Positions 2,398-28,400 of a DNA stretch of 46,903 nucleotides are shown one piece after another. The notes below the pieces were generated by a model, which saw nothing but the letters and a program-made list of their open reading frames with translations, ran no database searches and was not told the DNA's origin. The DNA comes from a virus. A program made the position numbers and the translations under genes. The stretch lies in the IMG/VR virus record IMGVR_UViG_3300045988_041451. One strand, 5' to 3'. Numbering within the stretch: position 1 is the first letter of the stretch; every line of letters starts with the position of its first letter.

Positions 2398-2829
2398 TTA
2401 GTTGAAAGGCGGTAACTCTTCGCCGTCTGGAATGTTCATGAATCCGTCATCACCTGTCATTCCGTACTGATCGTCGTTCCGGTTCTGGTTCTGTTCTGCT
2501 GCCGCCTTGCTTTCTGCGAACTCAATGTCACTGACATAGATTTCTGTGGTGTACACCTTTCTCCCTTCCCGGTTCGTGTAGCTTCCTGTTCGGATTTCTC
2601 CCTCGACGATCACCTTTGTTCCCTTGTGCGTGTATTTCTCCACAAACTCCGCCTTCTTCCCGAAGGCAACGCACGGAATGAAGTCTGCGTTCTGCTGATT
2701 TCCCTGTCTCTGTCCTCTTCTGTCCACGGCGAGCGTAAATCCTCCCACCGCTGTCTGCTCCGGTCCGTTTGAATACCGGATTTCCGGCTCCCTTGTCAGG
2801 CGGCCCATCAAAATTGCTTTGTTCATCAT
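2398..2829 (-). CDS. ssb: Single-stranded DNA-binding protein
   Basis: N-terminal MNKAILMGRLTREPEIRYS OB-fold signature, a Gln/Asn-rich linker and an acidic C-terminal tip DGEELPPFN. Confidence 0.9.
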   Translation of the reverse strand: MMNKAILMGRLTREPEIRYSNGPEQTAVGGFTLAVDRRGQRQGNQQNADFIPCVAFGKKAEFVEKYTHKGTKVIVEGEIRTGSYTNREGRKVYTTEIYVSDIEFAESKAAAEQNQNRNDDQYGMTGDDGFMNIPDGEELPPFN

Positions 2830-3202: not shown

Positions 3203-3622
3203 TCAGATTTCCGCGAGGCCCCCCCCCGATTGATTTTCGGCTCCTGCCAGTTTGATTCCGAGTCCGATCAGGAGTGCAATGTCAATCTGCTCCATTTCCT
3301 TCTCTGATGCCTTACCGACGAAGTTGTTGATTCTCTCCACAGACACCGGAGTCGGCTGTTCGCATAATGCCTCTGACTTTCTTCCGGTGCTCCTGATCGT
3401 AACGTGCGTCGGAAGGTCTTTCTTCGGTGCTGATGTCAGGAAAACCACTTCGAGCACATCGCTGTGCTTGTTGTTCGCATCGCAGGAGACGATCACCGCA
3501 GGTCTGTCCTTTTTCATCTCACTTCCGACGTGTTCCTTGCTTGCGTTGTTGATGTAATAGATTTCGCCTCTTCTGTACTGCTGCTCTGTCTCTGTTTCTT
3601 TGAATCCGTTTAATAATGCCAT
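3203..3622 (-). CDS. mazF: MazF/PemK-family toxin endoribonuclease
   Basis: It aligns by eye to B. subtilis EndoA/MazF. Shared segments are RRGEIYYI, GSE..KDRPAVIVS, LPTHVTI, ALCEQ and EMEQIDIALLIGLGI. Confidence 0.85.
   Translation of the reverse strand: MALLNGFKETETEQQYRRGEIYYINNASKEHVGSEMKKDRPAVIVSCDANNKHSDVLEVVFLTSAPKKDLPTHVTIRSTGRKSEALCEQPTPVSVERINNFVGKASEKEMEQIDIALLIGLGIKLAGAENQSGGGLAEI
3219..3227 (-). repeat. C9 (plus) / G9 (minus) homopolymer at the 3' end of the mazF-like ORF
   Basis: Counted directly: c at 3219-3227, the Gly-Gly-Gly codons just before the stop at 3203-3205. Confidence 0.95.
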
Positions 3623-18192: not shown

Positions 18193-18319
18193 ACATAGAA
18201 AAAGACAGTCCCTGACAAGAACTGCCTTTCCCCATCATTTCCTATGTAGCACATAACTTCATAGAATACAGATTCGCAACCTTTATTCTACCACGAAGTT
18301 GTGCTGCTGCATAGCTTTA

Positions 18320-18340
18320 TTTTTTTACGCTTTTTTTACG
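18320..18340 (+). repeat. Tandem TTTTTTTACG x2 just upstream of the integrase RBS
   Basis: Copies at 18320-29 and 18331-40, separated by one C. Confidence 0.85.
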
Positions 18341-18358
18341 GCAGAAAGAAGGGTTTTT

Positions 18359-19753
18359 ATGAATAGTACATACTTCAGACCGCAACCGGAACTCTTCGGC
18401 CTGCGTGTTGTTAAATATATACGTTGTTCCCATGACGGTCAGGTCCTTCACGGTGACACTCTGGAAGCGCAGGACGCTCTCCTCGATGAGTTCATCAAAG
18501 TGAATCGCATGGTGCTGATTGACACTTTCATCGACGAGGCCCTGACTGCCCGGAAGAAATTCACTCGCCGGAAGGAATTTGTCCGGCTTCTTGATGGTGT
18601 CCGTGCTCACAGCTTCGACATGATTCTCTTTACAAAACTTGACCGTTGGTTCAGGAATATCGGAGACTATCACAAAATTCAGGAGATACTTGAAGCAAAC
18701 GGAGTCCAGTGGAAGGCGATCACGGAGTCCTACGACACCACCACCACGAACGGCCGCCTGCACATCAACATCCGTCTGTCCGTTGCACAGGATGAGTGCG
18801 ATCGTGACAGCGATCGAATCAAAGACGTATTTGCATACAAACTGAAGAATAAAACCTATCTTTCCGGTTCCCTTCCTCGTGGTCTGAAACTAGATGATGA
18901 GAAGCACGTTATCATTGACCCGGAGTGGAAGCAATTTGCTCTTGATATGTTCGATCATTTTGAGCAGACCAATTCCAAGAGAGGGACATTGCTCTATCTG
19001 AAGGAAAAATACGGAATCTATTTGTGTTATGACACTATTTCCCGGAATCTTCGCAACTCTCTGTATAAAGGGATGTATCGTGATGACCCTGATTTTTGCG
19101 AGCCTCTAATCGAGCCAGAGCGATTCGACCGTATTCAGGTTTTAGGAAAACGGAACGTGCGTCAGCGTTACTCTAACCGAACATATATCTTCACTGGACT
19201 TCTGATCTGTTCTTCCTGCAATCATTATCTTGTCGGCCAGACAACTCACCGAACTCTTTCTGACGGAACCGAAAAGCACTATCCGTCGTATAGGTGCAAT
19301 CAGAGGTATCAGTCACATAGTTGTGATCGGAACCGCAGTTATCGTGAGGATTATGTCGAAGAATACCTTCTCCAACATATCCGCCCTGCTCTGTCCGAGT
19401 ATGTGGCAGAATATGAAGTGACCGGAACAAACCCTGCTCGGAAGAATCCTGCTGCTGAAGCTGCGAAGATACGAACTAAGATGCAGAAACTGTATGAACT
19501 GCACATGGATGACTTGATTGATCGTGATACATATAAAAGGGATTATTCCGCTTTTCAGGAGAAACTGAAAGAACTGGATTCCATTGTTGTTGCTCCTTCT
19601 CGTGATCTTGCTGATCTGAAGAAGCTGCTTGAACAGGATTATGAGGAGATATACAGAACATTTTCTCCGCAGGAGAAGAATGCTTTCTGGAAGTCCTTCG
19701 TGCAGTCAATCACTGTTCACGAGGGCGGAGAAATGGATATTGTTTTTTTATGA
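18359..19753 (+). CDS. int: Large serine recombinase (integrase)
   Basis: The start was trimmed to MNSTYF. Resolvase-type N-terminus VVKYIRCSHDGQ, a recombinase domain, the zinc ribbon CSSCNHYLVGQ...YRCNQ and a C-terminal coiled coil. Confidence 0.9.
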   Translation: MNSTYFRPQPELFGLRVVKYIRCSHDGQVLHGDTLEAQDALLDEFIKVNRMVLIDTFIDEALTARKKFTRRKEFVRLLDGVRAHSFDMILFTKLDRWFRNIGDYHKIQEILEANGVQWKAITESYDTTTTNGRLHINIRLSVAQDECDRDSDRIKDVFAYKLKNKTYLSGSLPRGLKLDDEKHVIIDPEWKQFALDMFDHFEQTNSKRGTLLYLKEKYGIYLCYDTISRNLRNSLYKGMYRDDPDFCEPLIEPERFDRIQVLGKRNVRQRYSNRTYIFTGLLICSSCNHYLVGQTTHRTLSDGTEKHYPSYRCNQRYQSHSCDRNRSYREDYVEEYLLQHIRPALSEYVAEYEVTGTNPARKNPAAEAAKIRTKMQKLYELHMDDLIDRDTYKRDYSAFQEKLKELDSIVVAPSRDLADLKKLLEQDYEEIYRTFSPQEKNAFWKSFVQSITVHEGGEMDIVFL

Positions 19754-19942: not shown

Positions 19943-21583
19943 TTATTTCTTCAGATAACTCTTTGAACTGAATCCGATGTACTCAACACCGTCGAGAGTG
20001 ACTGTGATGTATAACCACTTCACTCCGTTGTATGTGGTGTAATAACCATAGTTATGCACTTCAGTTCCTGCCGGAATGACGCACAATGCTTTTTTGTTGC
20101 TTCCTGCATCGTTTCTGCAATACAGCGCATCGGTTGTCTTGTAAGTTCCTGCAAGGCTTCTGTCATAACTCTTTGCATAGCAAGTTGACTTCACGGTCTT
20201 TGTGATCGGCTGGTCTTTTTGCTGTGGTTTGGTTGTAGTTGCTGCGGAGCCGTTCAGAATCTTGTTGACCTCTGCCTGAATGACTGCCGGGTCATATCCT
20301 GCCGCCTTCAGAGCGTTCTTTCTTGCATCTCCATTTCCCCACTGACCTGCGATGACCTCATGAGCCACTGTCGAAGTGCTCTTGCCCGGTGTCTGAACCG
20401 GATGACTCTGTGCTGCATCGGAGTCATACTTCGGAGTGATGAATCCTCTGATATAGCGTCCATTGATGGAAATTGTTCTCTTCTTGACTGCATTTTCAAA
20501 ATTGCCTTCGGTTACTACGAAGTAACCGGATGCCTGATTGACATAGGTTACTGTTCCAACGTGGTCAGGGTTTCCGGTGTTGTCTCCGATTCCGTTGTCT
20601 TCCCAGTCGTATATTACACCTTCGCCCAGTTTCGGAACGTGTGCGTCGTTCTCTTCCCACACTCCCATCGCTTTCGCTCTCTCGATCAGATAATAGCAAC
20701 TAATCTCGATCGGCATGATCGGAGTATATTTGAGAGCGACTGCCAGCGCGGACCATGTACACGCACACCACGGCCACGAGTATTCCATTTTCGTATTTCT
20801 CGGAAGTGCTCCGGTGAAACTGTTGTAAATGTCAATGATGTACTTGTACGAGCCGTCTGCTTCCTTCTTTCCGACCCAGCTTTCCACCAGATCGACAACT
20901 GCCTGTCTTGAATACATTTTCTTTTCTTCCTTTCCTGAATCTGTTGTTTCGTCTTTGACATACTGCTTTATCCAGCGGACGCAACACTCGTGCCTGCTCT
21001 GGAACTTCTTGTCCCCGACCTGATTGTTGTTGCTGGTGTCCCGCTGATCGAGCAGGAGGGATGCGAAGATCGTGTCCGGTGTGTACGGCTTCGATGCTCT
21101 GCCGAAGATTCTCTTCACTGGTCCCAGTCCTCCAAGATGCTCGATCTCACACCACATCATCTGCGCTTTGATGTCAGTCACTCCATACGCTTCTGCGCTC
21201 TTGATGTATGTGTTCATCAGTTCAGAGAACAGTTCGTCCTGACACTTCTTCCCGGCCGCCGTGGTGATGATCGCGATCAGTGCCTTCTTCTCTGCTGCTG
21301 ACGGATTCCATCCGGTTGCTTCCCAGTCAGCGGACAGTTTCTTCTCAATTCCTGCCGTGTCTGCCTTTCTGAATGCTGCTGCATCTGCGGCCAGAATCAT
21401 CTTACAGAGTCTTCTGCCTTCGTTTCCATAGTTCTGCGCCCATCCGAGAGTGCATGTCTTCTCGTTTGCGGAGTTCGCTGCCTTGCCTGCATATGCTGCA
21501 TAGTTCTGTCCACCGTAAATCTGACCACCTGATTCCACTCCGCCGATGATCTTTGCCAGTATTTCAAGATGTTCTTTTTTCAT
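19943..21583 (-). CDS. Multidomain endolysin: N-terminal glycosidase-like domain + CHAP + CW_7 + SH3b
   Basis: CHAP Cys WPWCACTW and His DHVGTV. CW_7-like VAHEVIAGQWGNGDARKNALKAAGYDPAVIQAEVNKIL. The C-terminus is SH3b-like. The N-terminal GGVESGG suggests a glycosidase, tentatively. Confidence 0.85.
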   Translation of the reverse strand: MKKEHLEILAKIIGGVESGGQIYGGQNYAAYAGKAANSANEKTCTLGWAQNYGNEGRRLCKMILAADAAAFRKADTAGIEKKLSADWEATGWNPSAAEKKALIAIITTAAGKKCQDELFSELMNTYIKSAEAYGVTDIKAQMMWCEIEHLGGLGPVKRIFGRASKPYTPDTIFASLLLDQRDTSNNNQVGDKKFQSRHECCVRWIKQYVKDETTDSGKEEKKMYSRQAVVDLVESWVGKKEADGSYKYIIDIYNSFTGALPRNTKMEYSWPWCACTWSALAVALKYTPIMPIEISCYYLIERAKAMGVWEENDAHVPKLGEGVIYDWEDNGIGDNTGNPDHVGTVTYVNQASGYFVVTEGNFENAVKKRTISINGRYIRGFITPKYDSDAAQSHPVQTPGKSTSTVAHEVIAGQWGNGDARKNALKAAGYDPAVIQAEVNKILNGSAATTTKPQQKDQPITKTVKSTCYAKSYDRSLAGTYKTTDALYCRNDAGSNKKALCVIPAGTEVHNYGYYTTYNGVKWLYITVTLDGVEYIGFSSKSYLKK

Positions 21584-22603: not shown

Positions 22604-22994
22604 TCTCTTCACCTCCCAAACTTGCAACGATGAGGTCATCCACGATTCCGCTCAGTTCTTCGTTGCTGGCTTTCAGTGCTGCATTCTCATCCTGAAGTGA
22701 TGCCACCTGTTCCTGAAGAATCTCCATCTCGGTCTTCTCTTCGCCCTCCTGCTCTGCCTTGATTGCTTTCTGCAACCATGCCTCACGGTTTTTCTCGATG
22801 GACTCTTCCAGATTCTCTCTGTACTGTGTTTCCAGAGTGTATCTGTCATAGGTGTACACCTGATCGCCCTCTTCTTTCTCGATCGGGCCTTCGATGTTCT
22901 CATAGAAAATGACTGTGCAAGTTCTGCCGACTACTTTCGGCAGTGCCTCGATCTCATGCTGCACAAGCGGCTTGATGTTGCTTTCTGTTCTCAT
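22596..22994 (-). CDS. XkdW-like tail-fibre-associated protein (acidic, C-terminal coiled coil)
   Basis: 132 aa. It sits immediately before the XkdX-like gene, as in PBSX. Confidence 0.5.
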   Translation of the reverse strand: MRTESNIKPLVQHEIEALPKVVGRTCTVIFYENIEGPIEKEEGDQVYTYDRYTLETQYRENLEESIEKNREAWLQKAIKAEQEGEEKTEMEILQEQVASLQDENAALKASNEELSGIVDDLIVASLGGEENV

Positions 22995-24099
22995 TGCTCA
23001 CTACTCCTTTCAGCAGTTTCAAATTGATAAACGGCTTCACACGTTCCTTCCAGAAGTTCCATGAATCCGAATTGTAAATGAATCCCATGTATGAGATCAT
23101 GCCGGATGCGTTCGTCGGTGAAATGTATGAGATTTTTGAAATCTTCTTCGCCTTGTGGCTTATCCTGAACATGATTGACTTTCGCAGTGTTGTCCATGCT
23201 CCTGCATGGAATTTATACCCTAAGAAGTCCAGCGGCCTGTCCTTCAGTGGAAAGACCTGCCAGTTTGCTTTCACCTGCATCTTTACCTTTCTCAACTCAT
23301 CCGCAATCATTCGGAGTGCTTTGTGTAATCTCCGTTTATTTGAATCAAATAGGACTATATCGTCCACATATCTTGTATGGTGCTTTGCACCTGTTTTCTC
23401 TGCGATCATGTGATCTATGTCCTGAAAGAAAAAATTGCAGAACCACGGTGATGTGTAGAGTCCGACCGGAATCCCTACTGCGTCAGCCTCTGGAAGCATC
23501 CTCGTGTGATCTGCCATAGGCTGTTGATAGCTGGCAATCAGTTTGAAGGCGAGGTTCAGGAACTTCCTGTCCTTGATTTTCTTTTCCAGTTTCTGCCGCA
23601 GGGCCTCGTGATTCATCGTCGGATAACAGTGGTGAACATCCAGCTTCAGGATTTTGCTCGTCCCGATCGGGTCACTCTTTATCCAATGGTTAATCATCTT
23701 TCGTGCTCCGTCTGTACCTTTGCCCGGTACGCATCCGCAGGAGAACTTGTCGGCTCCATGCTCAACAATCTCTCTGAAGACCTGAACGAACGCATGATGG
23801 ATGCACTGATCTGGATAGAATCTCGGCACGGCGATGACTCTCTTTTTCTTCTTGATACCGTCATAGATTTCTCTGATCGTGTATTTTGCCGGAACGAAGG
23901 TTTCATTCAGGAGCATTTCCTGAATCTTTCTGGCATAGCCTTCGAGGTCATTCAGGATTCTCTGCACGGAAGGCCGTTGCGTCTTTCGCTTTGATGCCCT
24001 CCTGATCGCGAGTTTGATGTTTTCAATATCCGTCACTCTCTCGAACAGATGCCCGATTCTCTTCGTCCATACGATGTTCTTCAGTTTCTGTAATTGCAT
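22954..24099 (-). CDS. DGR reverse transcriptase
   Basis: RT motifs RVIAVPRFYPDQCIHHAF, LKLDVHHCYPTMNH, IPVGLYTSPWFCNFFF, YVDDIVLF and FLGYKF. It lies adjacent to the TR. Confidence 0.92.
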   Translation of the reverse strand: MQLQKLKNIVWTKRIGHLFERVTDIENIKLAIRRASKRKTQRPSVQRILNDLEGYARKIQEMLLNETFVPAKYTIREIYDGIKKKKRVIAVPRFYPDQCIHHAFVQVFREIVEHGADKFSCGCVPGKGTDGARKMINHWIKSDPIGTSKILKLDVHHCYPTMNHEALRQKLEKKIKDRKFLNLAFKLIASYQQPMADHTRMLPEADAVGIPVGLYTSPWFCNFFFQDIDHMIAEKTGAKHHTRYVDDIVLFDSNKRRLHKALRMIADELRKVKMQVKANWQVFPLKDRPLDFLGYKFHAGAWTTLRKSIMFRISHKAKKISKISYISPTNASGMISYMGFIYNSDSWNFWKERVKPFINLKLLKGVVSNENRKQHQAACAA

Positions 24100-24414
24100 T
24101 TTGAAATGGTTTCTCCTATCTCTTTGTCAGCCTCATCGGTTTTCCACGCAAGGTACTGGCCGATGCCATTCACGGCTTTCATTTTTGCCAAGGGGCAAGG
24201 ACAGAACTTTCGTCCTGTTCCGTACCGGAGTACGGAGTGTAAAGTCACGATACATTTATACCAAATATTGAGAAATGTATCTAAATTAACGAGATATTGA
24301 CAAAGTGGGCGGCCGCCGATGTTCCAGTTCGAGTTCCCAGAGCCGTTGTTACAGTTCCGGTAGAAGGGGCCAGCATTGGACCCGTTGTTCACGTTAGCAC
24401 CAGAGATGACCAGC
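24100..24414 (-). ncRNA. DGR template RNA (TR plus structured spacer up to the RT start)
   Basis: TR at 24303-24414. Three adjacent hairpins at 24185-98, 24201-18 and 24220-35. The middle stem is fully paired only in the minus-sense RNA (G-U). Confidence 0.6.
24303..24414 (-). repeat. DGR template repeat (TR)
   Basis: 112-nt gap-free match to 24572-24683, with all 10 mismatches at TR adenines. Confidence 0.92.
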
Positions 24415-24521
24415 CGCTCGTGTCTTTACACCCTACAATTTTATTTATTTTCTGCTCTCATTTCAGGCGGCATCCTTCCAGCATGATTTTTCCACTTTAC
24501 TTTTCCTTTGCCGGAAGGTTT

Positions 24522-24544
24522 CATGGGGGAGGGAATCCCCCATG
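24522..24544 (-). promoter_or_regulatory. GC-rich hairpin just 3' of the VR and target stop (DGR target-recognition hairpin candidate)
   Basis: 9-bp stem CATGGGGGA/TCCCCCATG with a 5-nt loop, 16 nt beyond the stop codon at 24560-62. Confidence 0.55.
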
Positions 24545-24559
24545 TCCCCCTCGAAATGG

Positions 24560-26437
24560 TTATTTCCGACCAAGAGGGCGGCCGCCGAAGTCCCAGTTCG
24601 AGCTCCCAGAGCCGTTGTGACAGTTCCGGTAGAAGGGGCCAGCATTGGACCCGAGGTACACGTAAGCACCAGAGAAGACCAGCTCACCGCCTTCGGCCTG
24701 ATAGTAGTAGTCAGGGAAGTATGTGTTTGATGAGCCAGTTGCATCGGTGCAGATTTCAATTTCCGGCCACTCCGGGTCATAGCCAAACTCTTTGACATAT
24801 CCGTTCGCCTTCGCTGCTTCATAGCCTACTTTGAAATAGTCTCCTTCGTATACTTTATCCGCATAGCTGCTGTGCTTGTTGCAATAATAGTGCTGCCAGT
24901 TTTTAATGTTGTCACCATCGCGGAACTGCCACATATTTCCGAACCAATCCTCAATCCATAAGAATCTGATTGCGCTCATTCCATTCGTTTTGCCTTCAAT
25001 TCTTCCGTTCGGTGATGCCATGTCGATCGTTGCTCCTGTTGGCTGAAGTGAAGACCATAACACGCTTGTTGTCTTGATTGCCACCGGGTCCCCATCGAAA
25101 TATACGCACACTGCATTTTCTACTTCGGAAGAATCCTCAATCTTTGTGACTCTTCTGTCTGCTGCCAGACTCTGTGACCAGAGTCCTGCTCCGATTGAGA
25201 TTCCCTGACCGACTGCGAATCTGTTTCCGTATGTCTTCTCTACGGTGATATAGTTTCCTGTTCTTTCCTGAAGTGCCAGACCCTTCGTTCCGTCTTCAGG
25301 GAACTCTGTTCTTCCTGCTCCGAGGATTGACTGCGCGTTCGTGCTTGCGAACATTACAATGAACAGAGTGTCGAGCAGGTGCATGGTCCAGACATCATCC
25401 AGACACCACTTGTCTCCCTTCGCTGTGCAGAGTGTCCTGAACTGCGCTCTGGTTTTATTGTGTGCCGGGAAAACTCCTGCTTTTGATTCCAGCTTCGTCC
25501 CTTCTGTGTTGAGTGAGCCGGGGAAGATCGGAATGTAAATCTTCTCGCTCTGACGATCTCCGTCGGTGAACGCATGGTCAAGATGACATCTTCCGACCGG
25601 ACCTGCTGCCACCCATCTGTATTCCCACTTCACTCCGTCGGAGTCTGTCTCGAAATATCTTGCTGTGTACACCTGTGGCACTTCAAGCATGACATCTCCG
25701 TTGCTTCCGTCCCACTGGAAGTCCGCATCACCGAGATATGCGTTCACGCTCATATCCTCTGCCACGTTGCAAGGCTTCACGGAGTTGTACGGATATACGC
25801 TCGCCATGAAGTCATTCTGCACGGTTCCGTTTCCGACTGCTGCCTTCGCAACCAGTCCGACCGCTGCTCCGACTCTCTCCCATGTTGTCGAAGATGCTCC
25901 GACCTTTCTTCTTGCTCCATAGCCACGCAGAGCATCGCTCTCCACTGCGGTCACTCTTGCTTCCAGTGCTTCGAGATCGCTCTGAAGGGCAAGTGCTCCG
26001 GCAGACTTGATGGTCACGGTTGATGCGTTCGCAACTTCAAGATAGTAACTCATGTTGATAACACTCGGAACCACTCCGTTGTATGCAGGCATATAGTCGG
26101 ATGTGCTTGCTGTTGCGATGGAGTACAGAATCTCGCCCTTGTCCGGGTCAGATGCAAACACACCAAACTCTGTGATGTCATATCCTGCTGTCAGTGTGCT
26201 GTTCTCCATTGTGATCTTCAGCACCAGTGCTGAATCTGTATTGATAACTTTGTTTGAGATCGGGAATGTCTGCTTCACGGTCTTCAGCGCAGTTCTCTGT
26301 GAGATGTCCTCGCTCGAAGTATATGAGCCACTTCCCGACTGTGCCTTTGTGATCTGAATGGCACATTTTCCTGCCTGCGCTTTTGCGAGCAGTGCTTTTC
26401 CATCCTTCGTCAGTTTTCCGGGATTCCAAATAAGCAT
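24560..26437 (-). CDS. Tail fibre protein, DGR target (VR in the C-terminal lectin-like tip)
   Basis: The N-terminus is tail-collar-fibre-like (MLIWNPGKLTKDGKALLAKAQAG...ITEFGVFA). The C-terminus ...GSNAGPFYRNCHNGSGSSNWDFGGRPL is encoded by the VR. Confidence 0.9.
   Translation of the reverse strand: MLIWNPGKLTKDGKALLAKAQAGKCAIQITKAQSGSGSYTSSEDISQRTALKTVKQTFPISNKVINTDSALVLKITMENSTLTAGYDITEFGVFASDPDKGEILYSIATASTSDYMPAYNGVVPSVINMSYYLEVANASTVTIKSAGALALQSDLEALEARVTAVESDALRGYGARRKVGASSTTWERVGAAVGLVAKAAVGNGTVQNDFMASVYPYNSVKPCNVAEDMSVNAYLGDADFQWDGSNGDVMLEVPQVYTARYFETDSDGVKWEYRWVAAGPVGRCHLDHAFTDGDRQSEKIYIPIFPGSLNTEGTKLESKAGVFPAHNKTRAQFRTLCTAKGDKWCLDDVWTMHLLDTLFIVMFASTNAQSILGAGRTEFPEDGTKGLALQERTGNYITVEKTYGNRFAVGQGISIGAGLWSQSLAADRRVTKIEDSSEVENAVCVYFDGDPVAIKTTSVLWSSLQPTGATIDMASPNGRIEGKTNGMSAIRFLWIEDWFGNMWQFRDGDNIKNWQHYYCNKHSSYADKVYEGDYFKVGYEAAKANGYVKEFGYDPEWPEIEICTDATGSSNTYFPDYYYQAEGGELVFSGAYVYLGSNAGPFYRNCHNGSGSSNWDFGGRPLGRK
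24572..24683 (-). repeat. DGR variable repeat (VR), followed by a GC-rich IMH-like element
   Basis: See TR. The shared GGCGGCCGCCC sits at the 3' end, and the flanks diverge beyond it. Confidence 0.92.
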
Positions 26438-26449
26438 TTATAATTCCTC

Positions 26450-27265
26450 CTATCGTACTGTTGTACTTGTTTCTTTTACTTCACCATACAGCGCAATGTT
26501 CACGCTGCTCTCTTTTGCTTCACTGGCTGTTGTCAGATGATTCAGGACTGTCGTTGTGTTCTCCACATCTGTCACTCCTGCTGCACTCTGGCCTGCTGCC
26601 GTTTCGGTCTGCACCTGAATATCATTTCTGACAGTTGTTTCTCCGACTGTCTCTCTAATATATCCGGCCGCATACACTCCGTTCGGGACATCGTAGTCTC
26701 CGAGCAGTACGTTCGGGACGATTGAGTCCTGTGTTGAGAACATCCATGTGCAGGCATTCATGCCGGATGAAATATTTCTCTCGACGATGACTCTTCGCAC
26801 ATGAGATCGCACGTTCTTGACCTTCTGCACGAGTCCTGTCAGTTCCTCCATGATGTCCGATGTCATCAATGCTGATGTTACGATGTCGAATGTTCCCGGT
26901 GTGTATGGAGGCTCGTCGAAGTCGAACCACTCCACGACCTTTCCACCTCCGAGAACGACATCGACCATCTCTGATACTGCTGCCGGGGTTCCTGCCTTCG
27001 TGTACCAGTTCAGAGTGTTCTTGATGATCGCTTTCTTCTGCTCGATCGGCAATGTCTGCGAATAATACATTGCCCTCTGCTCCACTGCGAAATAATCCAG
27101 TGTCTTCTCGTCCAGCTTGTCGATGTCAGAGAAGCACTTTGTCTTCTCTGCCTTCTCGATCACCATTGCAACTGCCTTTTGAAGTGCGTAACTGATTGCC
27201 TGCATCTCTGGTGATTTCTCATCTTTCCACATTTCGGCAATTCCGCCCTCTGACAGTTTAATCAT
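26450..27265 (-). CDS. Tail protein I-like baseplate protein (P2 gpI / XkdU-like)
   Basis: The start was trimmed to MIKLSEGG, with an ATGATTAA overlap with gpJ. DKLDEKTLDYFAVEQRAMYY is typical of gpI. Confidence 0.7.
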   Translation of the reverse strand: MIKLSEGGIAEMWKDEKSPEMQAISYALQKAVAMVIEKAEKTKCFSDIDKLDEKTLDYFAVEQRAMYYSQTLPIEQKKAIIKNTLNWYTKAGTPAAVSEMVDVVLGGGKVVEWFDFDEPPYTPGTFDIVTSALMTSDIMEELTGLVQKVKNVRSHVRRVIVERNISSGMNACTWMFSTQDSIVPNVLLGDYDVPNGVYAAGYIRETVGETTVRNDIQVQTETAAGQSAAGVTDVENTTTVLNHLTTASEAKESSVNIALYGEVKETSTTVR

Positions 27266-28400
27266 CCTCAATTCCTCCATAGGCCACTTTTTTCGTTGTG
27301 ACCTTCGCCACGGCTGTCTTCTCAATCTTCCTGAAGACTGGTGCGTTGATCTCCACTCTCTTTGCTCCTGCATCTTCGAGCATACAGATCAGCTTCGACG
27401 GATTGATGTCGCGTCCGATCTTTGACCGCTGCCATATGATGTAATTCTCGACGGCAGCATTGACCGCACTCTGAATTGTGTTTGCTTGCGCTGAATCACT
27501 CTTGTTAATGTAGTATTTCAGGTCAAGCGCATATTCTACTGTGTCCGGTGCTTTTACGATCACTTTGTCCGTCAGCGGACGGATGTTCTCGTTGTGCAGA
27601 TAATCCTGCAATGACCGGATGATGCTCTCGTTCGGGAGTTCTCCATCGTTCATGATGAACTCGATCAGAACCTCCGTCGGATTCTCGCTGTCGATGTATA
27701 CGTCCGTGATGGATGAGTTGAAAGTCTTCACCCAGTATCTGTATGACTCTTCCGGTCCTGCAACTGAATACTTGCTCGGCGCGATGTAGATTCGCTCTGC
27801 AAGGCTGTCATCTGATTCGATGTCAGTTCCTCCTGTTGATTCTTCCACGCTCTCTGCGCTCTGGATGTATGCGATCGGGTCCACAAGCACGTTGATGTCT
27901 CCTGCCATCAGTCCATTTCCTGACGTTCCTGCCGTCTGGCAGGTGCAGATCAGTTCGATGCTTTCTTCCCCTGTTGCGATTTCTGCATATTCATTCGTCT
28001 CGAAGTACAGTTCGCCATTCGTGACTCTTGTTCCGGCCGGAATTGCGACCGGATGCGGACGCAGGCCAGACAGTGTGAACTTGACTTTCACGACTGCTGC
28101 CTTTGCAGGTTCTCGCTTGATTCCTTTCAGTGCGGCCAGATTGTCCATAAACTCGCCGTAACTGTATTTCAGCAGGTCCTGCTTCCCTGCACGATCGACA
28201 TAGAGCAGTGCCTGATATATCTGAATCGAGCAGGCATACAGAACCAGCGCAGGAGGGTCTGCCCTTCCCAGTGTTGTCGGTGTTCCGGTCAGTGTCTCAT
28301 ATCTCTCCTGATAGTCCGACACCATTTGCCTCTGCACATCGTCCAGTGTGATGTAGTCAATGAAGCTCACCTCTGGCAGATTTTCGATTTCGTCAATCAC
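27258..28400 (-). CDS. Baseplate J-like protein
   Basis: 380 aa. GTG start after AGGAGG. Assigned by position and length between the gp25-like and gpI-like genes. Confidence 0.8.
   Translation of the reverse strand: MIDEIENLPEVSFIDYITLDDVQRQMVSDYQERYETLTGTPTTLGRADPPALVLYACSIQIYQALLYVDRAGKQDLLKYSYGEFMDNLAALKGIKREPAKAAVVKVKFTLSGLRPHPVAIPAGTRVTNGELYFETNEYAEIATGEESIELICTCQTAGTSGNGLMAGDINVLVDPIAYIQSAESVEESTGGTDIESDDSLAERIYIAPSKYSVAGPEESYRYWVKTFNSSITDVYIDSENPTEVLIEFIMNDGELPNESIIRSLQDYLHNENIRPLTDKVIVKAPDTVEYALDLKYYINKSDSAQANTIQSAVNAAVENYIIWQRSKIGRDINPSKLICMLEDAGAKRVEINAPVFRKIEKTAVAKVTTKKVAYGGIEDD

Follow-up and report, generated by a model that had tools for sequence, protein, structure and literature searches.

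A diversity-generating retroelement without Avd, and its structured spacer RNA, at the tail-fibre locus of a temperate phage

How would a diversity-generating retroelement (DGR) that lacks the accessory protein Avd prime the copying of its template, and is such an element at work in the phage that carries it? These questions are raised by IMG/VR record IMGVR_UViG_3300045988_041451, a viral DNA of 46,903 nt which we analysed as a whole and call the window. There, a tail-fibre gene ending in a variable repeat (VR) is followed by a template repeat (TR), a spacer and the gene of a reverse transcriptase (RT), all read on the minus strand. Positions are those of the whole window and the features are collected in Table 1. 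A preliminary description, made from the letters of the DNA, had taken this arrangement for a DGR. We find that it is very probably a functional one, made of the target gene with its VR, the TR, a spacer RNA and the RT, without Avd, and carried by a temperate phage of the contractile-tail type in gut Firmicutes of the Lachnospiraceae type. As an element, it is a textbook DGR of a known Avd-less class, from which the concept gains nothing. Novelty may lie only in the assignment of an orphan RNA family, RT-18, as the TR-adjacent and TR-pairing spacer of a whole lineage.

The repeat pair, its target and its relatives

The TR and the VR align without gaps over 112 nt and differ at 10 positions, all of which face adenines of the TR. 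The plus-strand positions listed in the preliminary description (24306, 24320, 24323, 24334, 24350, 24385, 24386, 24389, 24395 and 24407) are exact, and its counts hold: 10 of the 24 TR adenines are changed, against 0 of the 88 other positions. The probability that all 10 mismatches would hit the 24 adenines by chance is 3.5e-8 (hypergeometric). The codon changes are also those described, with AAC codons of the TR read as TAC, TAC, CTC, CAC, AGC and GAC in the VR, ATC turned into TTC twice and CCA into CCT. An independent repeat search recovered the pair as 24299-24414 and 24568-24683, i.e. 4 nt longer at the 3' end. The layout given earlier is right as well: the VR codes for roughly residues 585-621 of the 625-aa target, which is its end, the TR starts 145 nt past the target stop codon, and an RT frame of 381 aa with a YVDD motif lies on the same strand as the TR. 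No second VR was found in the window, even when only non-adenine positions were scored and up to 35% mismatch was allowed.

The TR is laid out in a way that spares the reading frame. Its 23 mutable adenines are confined to codon positions 1 or 2 (10 AAY, 2 ATC and 1 TAC codons), and no change at an adenine-facing site (A-site) can reach a stop codon. The variants reachable at these 13 codons number up to ~7e13 as DNA and ~3.7e13 as peptides.

One of the 10 mismatches has a different status. A GC-rich run of 12 nt is the same in TR and VR, and the bases after it differ (A24306/T and T24302/G) consistently among relatives. Hence the 3' ends of the repeats show a GC-rich stretch and, behind it, TR/VR differences at non-A bases, which is the layout of the initiation of mutagenic homing (IMH) site of DGRs and its TR-side counterpart, IMH*. 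The change at 24306 is synonymous, and the VR base there is T in all but one of the relatives inspected. Because it lies just 3' of the GC-rich run and is T in nearly all relatives' VRs, this mismatch is a fixed IMH/IMH* difference: it marks the boundary and not live mutagenesis. The mutagenic-homing signature of the preliminary description thus stands for nine live mismatches at 23 mutable adenines, and fails for the tenth. A GC-rich hairpin sits ~24 nt downstream of where VR/TR homology ends. An equivalent G5/C5 hairpin of 6-9 bp is predicted at the same place in 12 of the 12 loci folded (the window and 11 relatives), and has 7-9 bp in 11 of them. With mismatches restricted to adenines, a VR at the 3' end of a fibre gene, a GC-rich IMH with its hairpin and a TR beside an RT, the interpretation as a DGR is upheld.

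We then turned to related loci, of which a scan of IMG/VR with the RT gave 35. Their comparison at the level of the population was used in place of read-level VR heterogeneity. Nearly every locus with enough upstream sequence owns a TR/VR pair, with 8-20 mismatches that are almost all at TR adenines. Between the window and the locus L006 the TRs are identical, and the VRs differ at 16 of 24 A-sites and at 0 of the 88 others (Fisher P = 7.7e-14). The VRs of L003 and L004 follow this pattern too, differing at 14 of 25 A-sites and at 0 of 87 other sites. Over the 22 unique VRs of the clade, 260 of 550 A-sites (47%) differ from the TR, against 2 of 1824 non-A sites (0.1%). The replacement bases at changed A-sites, as they are found after selection, are G (48%), T (29%) and C (23%). 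The TRs of different lineages also differ at 9-15 non-A sites, and these differences are copied in the lineage's own VR in 8 of 9, 10 of 11 and 13 of 15 cases. Since TR changes are mirrored in the cognate VRs, TR-to-VR transfer occurred after those lineages split. The window RT is 94-99% identical to the RTs of relatives whose VRs all differ. Such variation is what ongoing TR-to-VR mutagenic homing would leave behind, and A-site variation among near-identical genomes has been used likewise as evidence for DGRs of gut phages (PMC8008677).

What is diversified is the tip of a fibre. Pfam PF12571 covers residues 9-144 of the target, which also matches PHROG families annotated as tail protein and tail fiber. 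An AlphaFold2 model of its last 335 residues (291-625) has a predicted local distance difference test score of 92.6 and a predicted template-modelling (TM) score of 0.90. The fold search with this model returned the chains of TaqVP (5vf4) as the only significant PDB matches (E = 1.3e-7, probability 1.0). TaqVP is a DGR variable protein with a C-type-lectin fold, so the lectin-type fold expected in the preliminary description for this C-terminus is borne out by the model, and the frame that has the VR at its 3' end codes for a variable domain modelled as lectin-like. Fold matches in BFVD include many tail-collar fibres of gut phages, among them TvpA-like, sulfatase-modifying-factor-like and crAss-like fibre proteins. 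Only the fold search was informative: the target's sequence, searched against the PDB, gave nothing meaningful, and a Pfam scan of it showed no lectin or formylglycine-generating enzyme domain.

Some loci of the scan deserve a mention of their own. L002 (3664-3779), L015 (~2830-2950) and L019 (~2600-2720) hold a single VR/TR hybrid copy and lack the VR-TR interval of ~260-270 nt. The 5' part of the hybrid is VR-like, with mutated A-sites, and its 3' part is TR-like and runs into the spacer and the RT. Either VR/TR recombination deleted the interval, in which case the DGR would be dead and the fibre frame longer, or the repeat collapsed in short-read assembly. In the window, a frame of 103 aa (24081-24392, minus strand) runs open from within the TR, across the whole spacer and a little beyond the RT start codon. 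No family matches it, and we treated it as spurious, probably a chance frame; a fibre encoded by one of the collapsed hybrids would carry it as a C-terminal extension. In a distant relative, L094 (6911-7944), the RT is split over three frames (tblastn), RT-18 is present and 9 of 9 TR/VR mismatches are at A. The split, which brings to mind the RT in three frames reported for Quimbyvirus (PMC8008677), could also be a sequencing error or recent decay. Finally, L037 and L038 are two RT matches of ~71% identity at opposite ends of the 49,929-bp contig CANQPD010000022.1 from a metagenome-assembled genome (MAG) of Dysosmobacter, which suggests a circular phage genome with overlapping assembled ends, or two cassettes.

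A spacer RNA that may pair with the template repeat

The TR is separated from the RT gene by a structured RNA that includes the Rfam family RT-18. This motif is at the same position in 28 of the 28 related loci scanned, including distant ones with 30-42% RT identity, one of which is found in a siphophage context, in Pseudogracilibacillus. The fold of the spacer has a z-score of -3.9. In an alignment of 12 sequences the share of cells that pair is 97.7%, where slid controls give 31-50%; compensatory changes are seen in 12 pairs, and in 0-1 pairs of those controls.

The structure is predicted to close back on the template. A long-range helix would join the 3' end of the TR, CUUUGUCA (24305-24298), with the tail of RT-18, UGACAAAG (24129-24122). 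In distant relatives a duplex recurs at the same two places with at least six different sequences, such as UCUUAUUAG / CUAAUAAGA, CUUAUAUUU / AAAUAUAAG and UUCUUAAA / UUUAAGAA, while a CUU:AAG core is invariant across relatives. Cognate duplexes are more stable than non-cognate ones (-8.4 vs -5.9 kcal/mol, permutation p < 5e-5). A mini-alignment that was anchored by hand, and is thereby biased towards pairing, gives the duplex a covariation score of 0.458; shuffles score 0.115 and slid controls 0.02-0.15. In BPP-1, TR117-129 pairs with Sp47-56, which sets the priming A56 beside the first template base (bioRxiv 10.1101/2023.10.23.563531). By analogy, cDNA synthesis in the window would start at about 24306, where TR/VR identity stops being enforced.

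These elements can be put together into a mechanism. An RNA with the TR and the ~200-nt spacer would be made, probably within the late tail operon. As the covariation shows, its spacer folds into a conserved multi-hairpin structure ending in RT-18, and covariation also supports the pairing of the RT-18 tail with the 3' end of the TR. If the analogy with the TR:Sp pairing of BPP-1 holds, a spacer nucleotide, predicted within or beside AAG-A at 24124-24121, would thereby become a cis-primer beside the first template base, at ~24306. Copying by the RT would then run towards the 5' end of the TR, with U, C and G read faithfully and random incorporation opposite A, as the pattern of substitutions suggests. 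The boundaries of transfer and the mirrored TR changes suggest that the cDNA would replace the VR between the IMH run, flanked by the hairpin, and the 5' homology boundary at 24683. The outcome would be a diversified lectin-like fibre tip, with altered receptor specificity and host range as the benefit presumed from BPP-1.

RT-18 was defined as a motif upstream of an RT gene, without assigned function, and only RT-10, that of BPP-1, was tied to a DGR (Weinberg et al. 2017, PMC5737381). In the literature we found no later paper giving RT-18 a function. We lean, if only slightly, towards reading it as the scaffold RNA for cis-priming in a broad lineage of Avd-independent DGRs, a lineage that would span subclades with SP and with SQ in the RT, RT identities down to 30%, and myophages as well as siphophages. 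The RT-18 tail (...AAG-A) would pair with the (U)CUU... behind the GC-rich IMH* of the TR and so bring the primer and the first template base into the RT active site without Avd. Pairing of RT-18 with the TR 3' end thus suggests how reverse transcription may be primed when Avd is lacking, a matter that a large survey of DGRs left open (PMC5758913); the structural work on BPP-1 looked at RNA elements only in Avd-bearing DGRs (bioRxiv 10.1101/2023.10.23.563531). If true, the RT-18 scaffold would offer the first concrete way into the mechanism of Avd-independent mutagenic retrohoming. Relatives are carried by cultured hosts, in which the model could be tested, namely Blautia ammoniilytica Sanger_23, Agathobacter sp. 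LCP21S3_B2 and Clostridium sp. OF03-18AA.

The reverse transcriptase, the missing Avd and rival explanations

The RT matches Pfam RVT_1 (E = 4.4e-20) and PHROG 1423 (E = 8.8e-87). Its closest solved relative is a reverse transcriptase of 328 aa, 8ub7_A (E = 1.8e-17), which comes ahead of group II intron RTs and which we take to be the RT of the BPP-1 DGR (bRT). The three catalytic aspartates align between the two proteins. The equivalents of bRT R74 and I181, residues shown to promote adenine mutagenesis (PMC7826257), are R and V in the window RT. With intact catalytic motifs, and a TR that ends 203 nt upstream of its start, this RT falls in the DGR clade. Among its homologues, the 431-aa protein P0070 aligns to 86% of the query at 98% identity and has a further match to PF00145, a cytosine-C5 DNA methylase; a fusion, a frameshift or an assembly chimera may lie behind this combination.

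Several observations weigh against a functional DGR in this phage and must be set against the evidence above. The first is that we found no homologue of Avd: neither the gap between VR and TR (145 nt) nor that between TR and RT (203 nt) holds a frame for one, and BPP-1 needs Avd. Five Avd-sized basic frames elsewhere in the window have no Pfam match, in a scan that did not take in every small frame. Avd is present in about 74% of DGRs and hence is not universal. In one survey 75 of 372 DGRs had no accessory gene, Lineage 3 lacks avd, and Architecture A and Lineage 3 fit the absence of Avd seen here (Wu et al. 2018, PMC5758913). The second is that motif 4 of the RT has SP and not the SQ of the signature [I/V/L]GxxxSQ, of which the [I/V/L]G half is present. 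The 65 homologues above ~55% identity all combine SP with YVDD; SQ is found in 47 more distant ones, in nearly every case together with YMDD. Most of the distant loci with RT-18 (30-42% RT identity) also have the canonical SQ. The dipeptide varies in about 10% of DGRs, with SP among the recorded variants (PMC3521204), and the Q187P mutant of bRT retains A-mutagenesis (PMC7826257). The SP motif therefore need not speak against function. Third, the global TM-scores between the target domain and TaqVP are below 0.5 (0.48 and 0.43). Fourth, priming by the TR:RT-18 duplex is proposed from covariation and analogy, and the hand-anchored alignment mentioned above enters here. Fifth, a sigma-70-like site upstream of the TR (24466-24438, minus strand) is no better than shuffled sequence; the same check near the TR found no terminator on the minus strand. 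Finally, current activity in this particular phage would follow from what is seen in its relatives.

If Avd is missing, might another protein have taken its place? The candidate is a small acidic frame that follows the RT and overlaps it. A homologue does so in every recovered locus whose sequence continues beyond the RT, at RT identities as low as 30% and including the loci found with its own profile, as one would expect of a dedicated DGR accessory protein replacing Avd. This protein could be the CH1 of Wu et al. 2018, which has 160-169 aa and a pI of 4.7 and is found only in Avd-less DGRs (PMC5758913): the long forms of 161-164 aa, with pI 4.7-4.9, agree with that description. But the long homologues (161-173 aa) carry at their C-terminus the chaperone domain Phage_tail_APC (Pfam PF16778, 51-73 bits, above threshold) and match PHROG families of tail fiber assembly. 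The frame's place, between the fibre gene and XkdX, is also that expected of a fibre chaperone, and the homologous DGR of L092, a Pseudogracilibacillus siphophage, has no significant homologue of it. Besides, the homologue search was partly seeded inside the RT overlap, which biases it towards RT-linked copies, and an acidic protein is unlikely to bind RNA as Avd does. We downgraded the new accessory gene once Phage_tail_APC was seen in the long homologues and L092 proved to lack the frame, and we now hold it to be rather improbable. Given the domain of the long homologues, the chaperone position and the absence from the L092 DGR, the acidic frame is most likely a phage fibre-assembly gene flanking the cassette, so that TR and RT lie between the fibre and its chaperone. 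CH1, which we compared by its published description, may itself belong to this chaperone family, since the 161-164-aa homologues fit that description; it would then be a fibre-assembly chaperone and not a retrohoming factor. Homologues of the acidic frame are also present in L011, L085, L090 and L091. L094 had been considered as a DGR-less control for it, as its gene table shows no RVT_1, and was rejected when its three-frame RT and its adenine-restricted TR/VR pair came to light.

The functional DGR might also be a relic, i.e. a system active in the lineage and silent in this genome, for instance because it is unexpressed or lacks a host or accessory factor, so that the differences would be historical. 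Activity in this genome is indeed deduced from the sequences of relatives, Avd is absent, and decay is seen in relatives, with the broken RT of L094 and the collapsed repeats of L002, L015 and L019. But the RT frame is full length with intact motifs and nearly identical to the RTs of relatives with all-different VRs, the TR, the IMH, the hairpin and RT-18 are all intact and conserved, and the non-A sites of the VR carry no decay mutations (0/88). We thus regard a relic as very unlikely. That the pair is an ordinary 112-nt duplication, diverged by normal mutation and selection beside an unrelated RT (a retron, a group II remnant or a defence RT), could appeal to the partial matches of the RT to NCBIfam models, but these are all far below the cut-offs (group II intron RT 100.4 vs 300, Drt3a 67.8 vs 200, retron RT 42.6 vs 235), RT-18 is the only Rfam match in the window, which leaves no intron RNA domains and no retron msr/msd, and the explanation is refuted by mismatches found only at the A of one copy, in the window as in 22 independent VRs, and by non-A TR changes copied into VRs.

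Phage context and known systems

Table 1. Features of the DGR cassette and of its phage, in window coordinates.
Feature	Position	Strand	Remarks
Template repeat (TR)	24303..24414	-	23 mutable adenines plus the boundary A at 24306
Variable repeat (VR)	24572..24683	-	about the last 37 codons ahead of the C-terminal GRK tail
IMH	24568..24587	-	GC-rich CGGCGGCCGCCC (24576-24587), then TCTTGGTC, which differs from the TR side
IMH*	24299..24318	-	TR-side counterpart: CGGCGGCCGCCC followed by ACTTTGTC
Candidate target-recognition hairpin or cruciform	24522..24544	-	GC-rich, 9-bp stem CATGGGGGA/TCCCCCATG
Target gene, 625-aa tail fibre	24560..26437	-	N-terminal Phage_tail_fib collar domain, C-terminal C-type-lectin-like variable domain (modelled)
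Structured spacer RNA between TR and RT	24100..24302	-	hairpins at 24249-24281, 24220-24235 and 24201-24218, then RT-18
Rfam RT-18 RNA (RF03021)	24120..24197	-	60.2 bits, gathering score 41.3
TR-side strand of predicted duplex, CUUUGUCA	24298..24305	-	minimum-free-energy fold and RNAalifold consensus
Spacer-side strand of predicted duplex, UGACAAAG	24122..24129	-	3' tail of RT-18, followed by AGA; RNAalifold, covariation
DGR-type reverse transcriptase, 381 aa	22954..24099	-	motif 4 VGLYTSP, motif 5 YVDD; catalytic aspartates intact
Acidic frame, 132 aa	22596..22994	-	pI 4.3; overlaps the RT stop by 41 nt
SSB (single-stranded DNA-binding protein)	2398-2829	-	early/lysogeny region
PemK/MazF-type toxin gene	3203-3622	-	early/lysogeny region
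Large serine recombinase (integrase)	18299-19753	+	early/lysogeny region

The window is the genome of a temperate tailed phage, in which the target gene comes after those of Baseplate_J (27258-28400) and Tail_P2_I (26450-27373), and downstream of the RT come the acidic frame, an XkdX-like frame, a holin-like frame and a CHAP/CW_7 lysin. The toxin, recombinase and SSB genes are ordinary features of a temperate phage. The genomes or MAGs in which relatives of the RT occur are those of Fusicatenibacter (92% identity), Mediterraneibacter, Agathobacter, Blautia, Clostridium sp. and Dysosmobacter, and one homologue of the target is named as a Lachnospiraceae phage tail protein. A megablast of the cassette against the INPHARED phage collection gave no match and no near-identical record. 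In relatives, imperfect tandem repeats of ~150 nt (~70-77% identity) lie ~3.4-4 kb downstream of the RT, behind the lysis genes (e.g. L016:8384-8811). They show no A-bias, are unrelated to the DGR and are probably CW_7-type cell-wall-binding repeats of the lysin, as in the window frame 19943-21583. The value of the locus lies in the natural data set that comes with it, which is clean: a family of prophages of gut Firmicutes, some in cultured isolates, with clear signs, at the level of the population, of ongoing fibre diversification.

DGRs are enriched in gut phages, and those known from the human gut (Hankyphage, Quimbyvirus, Faecalibacterium prophages, crAss-like phages) are, like this one, found in temperate gut phages with lectin-fold tail targets. 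They differ in host group, the lineage of the window being found in Lachnospiraceae and Oscillospiraceae. The prototype, the DGR of BPP-1 (mtd-avd-TR-brt), shares much with the window cassette. In both, A-specific mutagenic homing is directed, or would be directed, into a C-terminal lectin-like tip of a phage fibre, the 3' end of the target holds the VR, with a GC-rich IMH and then a hairpin, and the TR lies just upstream of the RT with a structured spacer in between. The BPP-1 spacer pairs with the 3' end of the TR, and that of the window is predicted to do likewise. Yet BPP-1 has avd and the window cassette does not, motif 4 of the window RT ends in SP instead of SQ, with YVDD as motif 5, and the target has no sequence similarity to Mtd. 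Unlike BPP-1, the phage has a P2/PBSX-like baseplate module and its probable host is a gut Firmicute.

The closest parallels in architecture are the Avd-less DGRs of Architecture A1/E1 and of Lineage 3 (PMC5758913), which have the same order of target, TR and RT on one strand and no avd, HRDC or MSL gene. In Architecture E the RT is flanked by CH1, and in the window by a small acidic frame that is chaperone-like. Thermus aquaticus provides the parallel for the target: like its C-terminal domain as modelled, TaqVP is a variable protein with a C-type-lectin fold, but the two share 14% sequence identity, with TM-scores of 0.43-0.48, and TaqVP is cellular whereas the target is a phage fibre. As for the RNA, the BPP-1 spacer is RT-10 (PMC5737381) and that of the window RT-18. 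The window motif scores above the Rfam gathering threshold and lies, as in the definition of the family, upstream of an RT gene. In this lineage, it is in addition always the TR-to-RT spacer of a DGR, with a 3' tail predicted to pair with the end of the TR.

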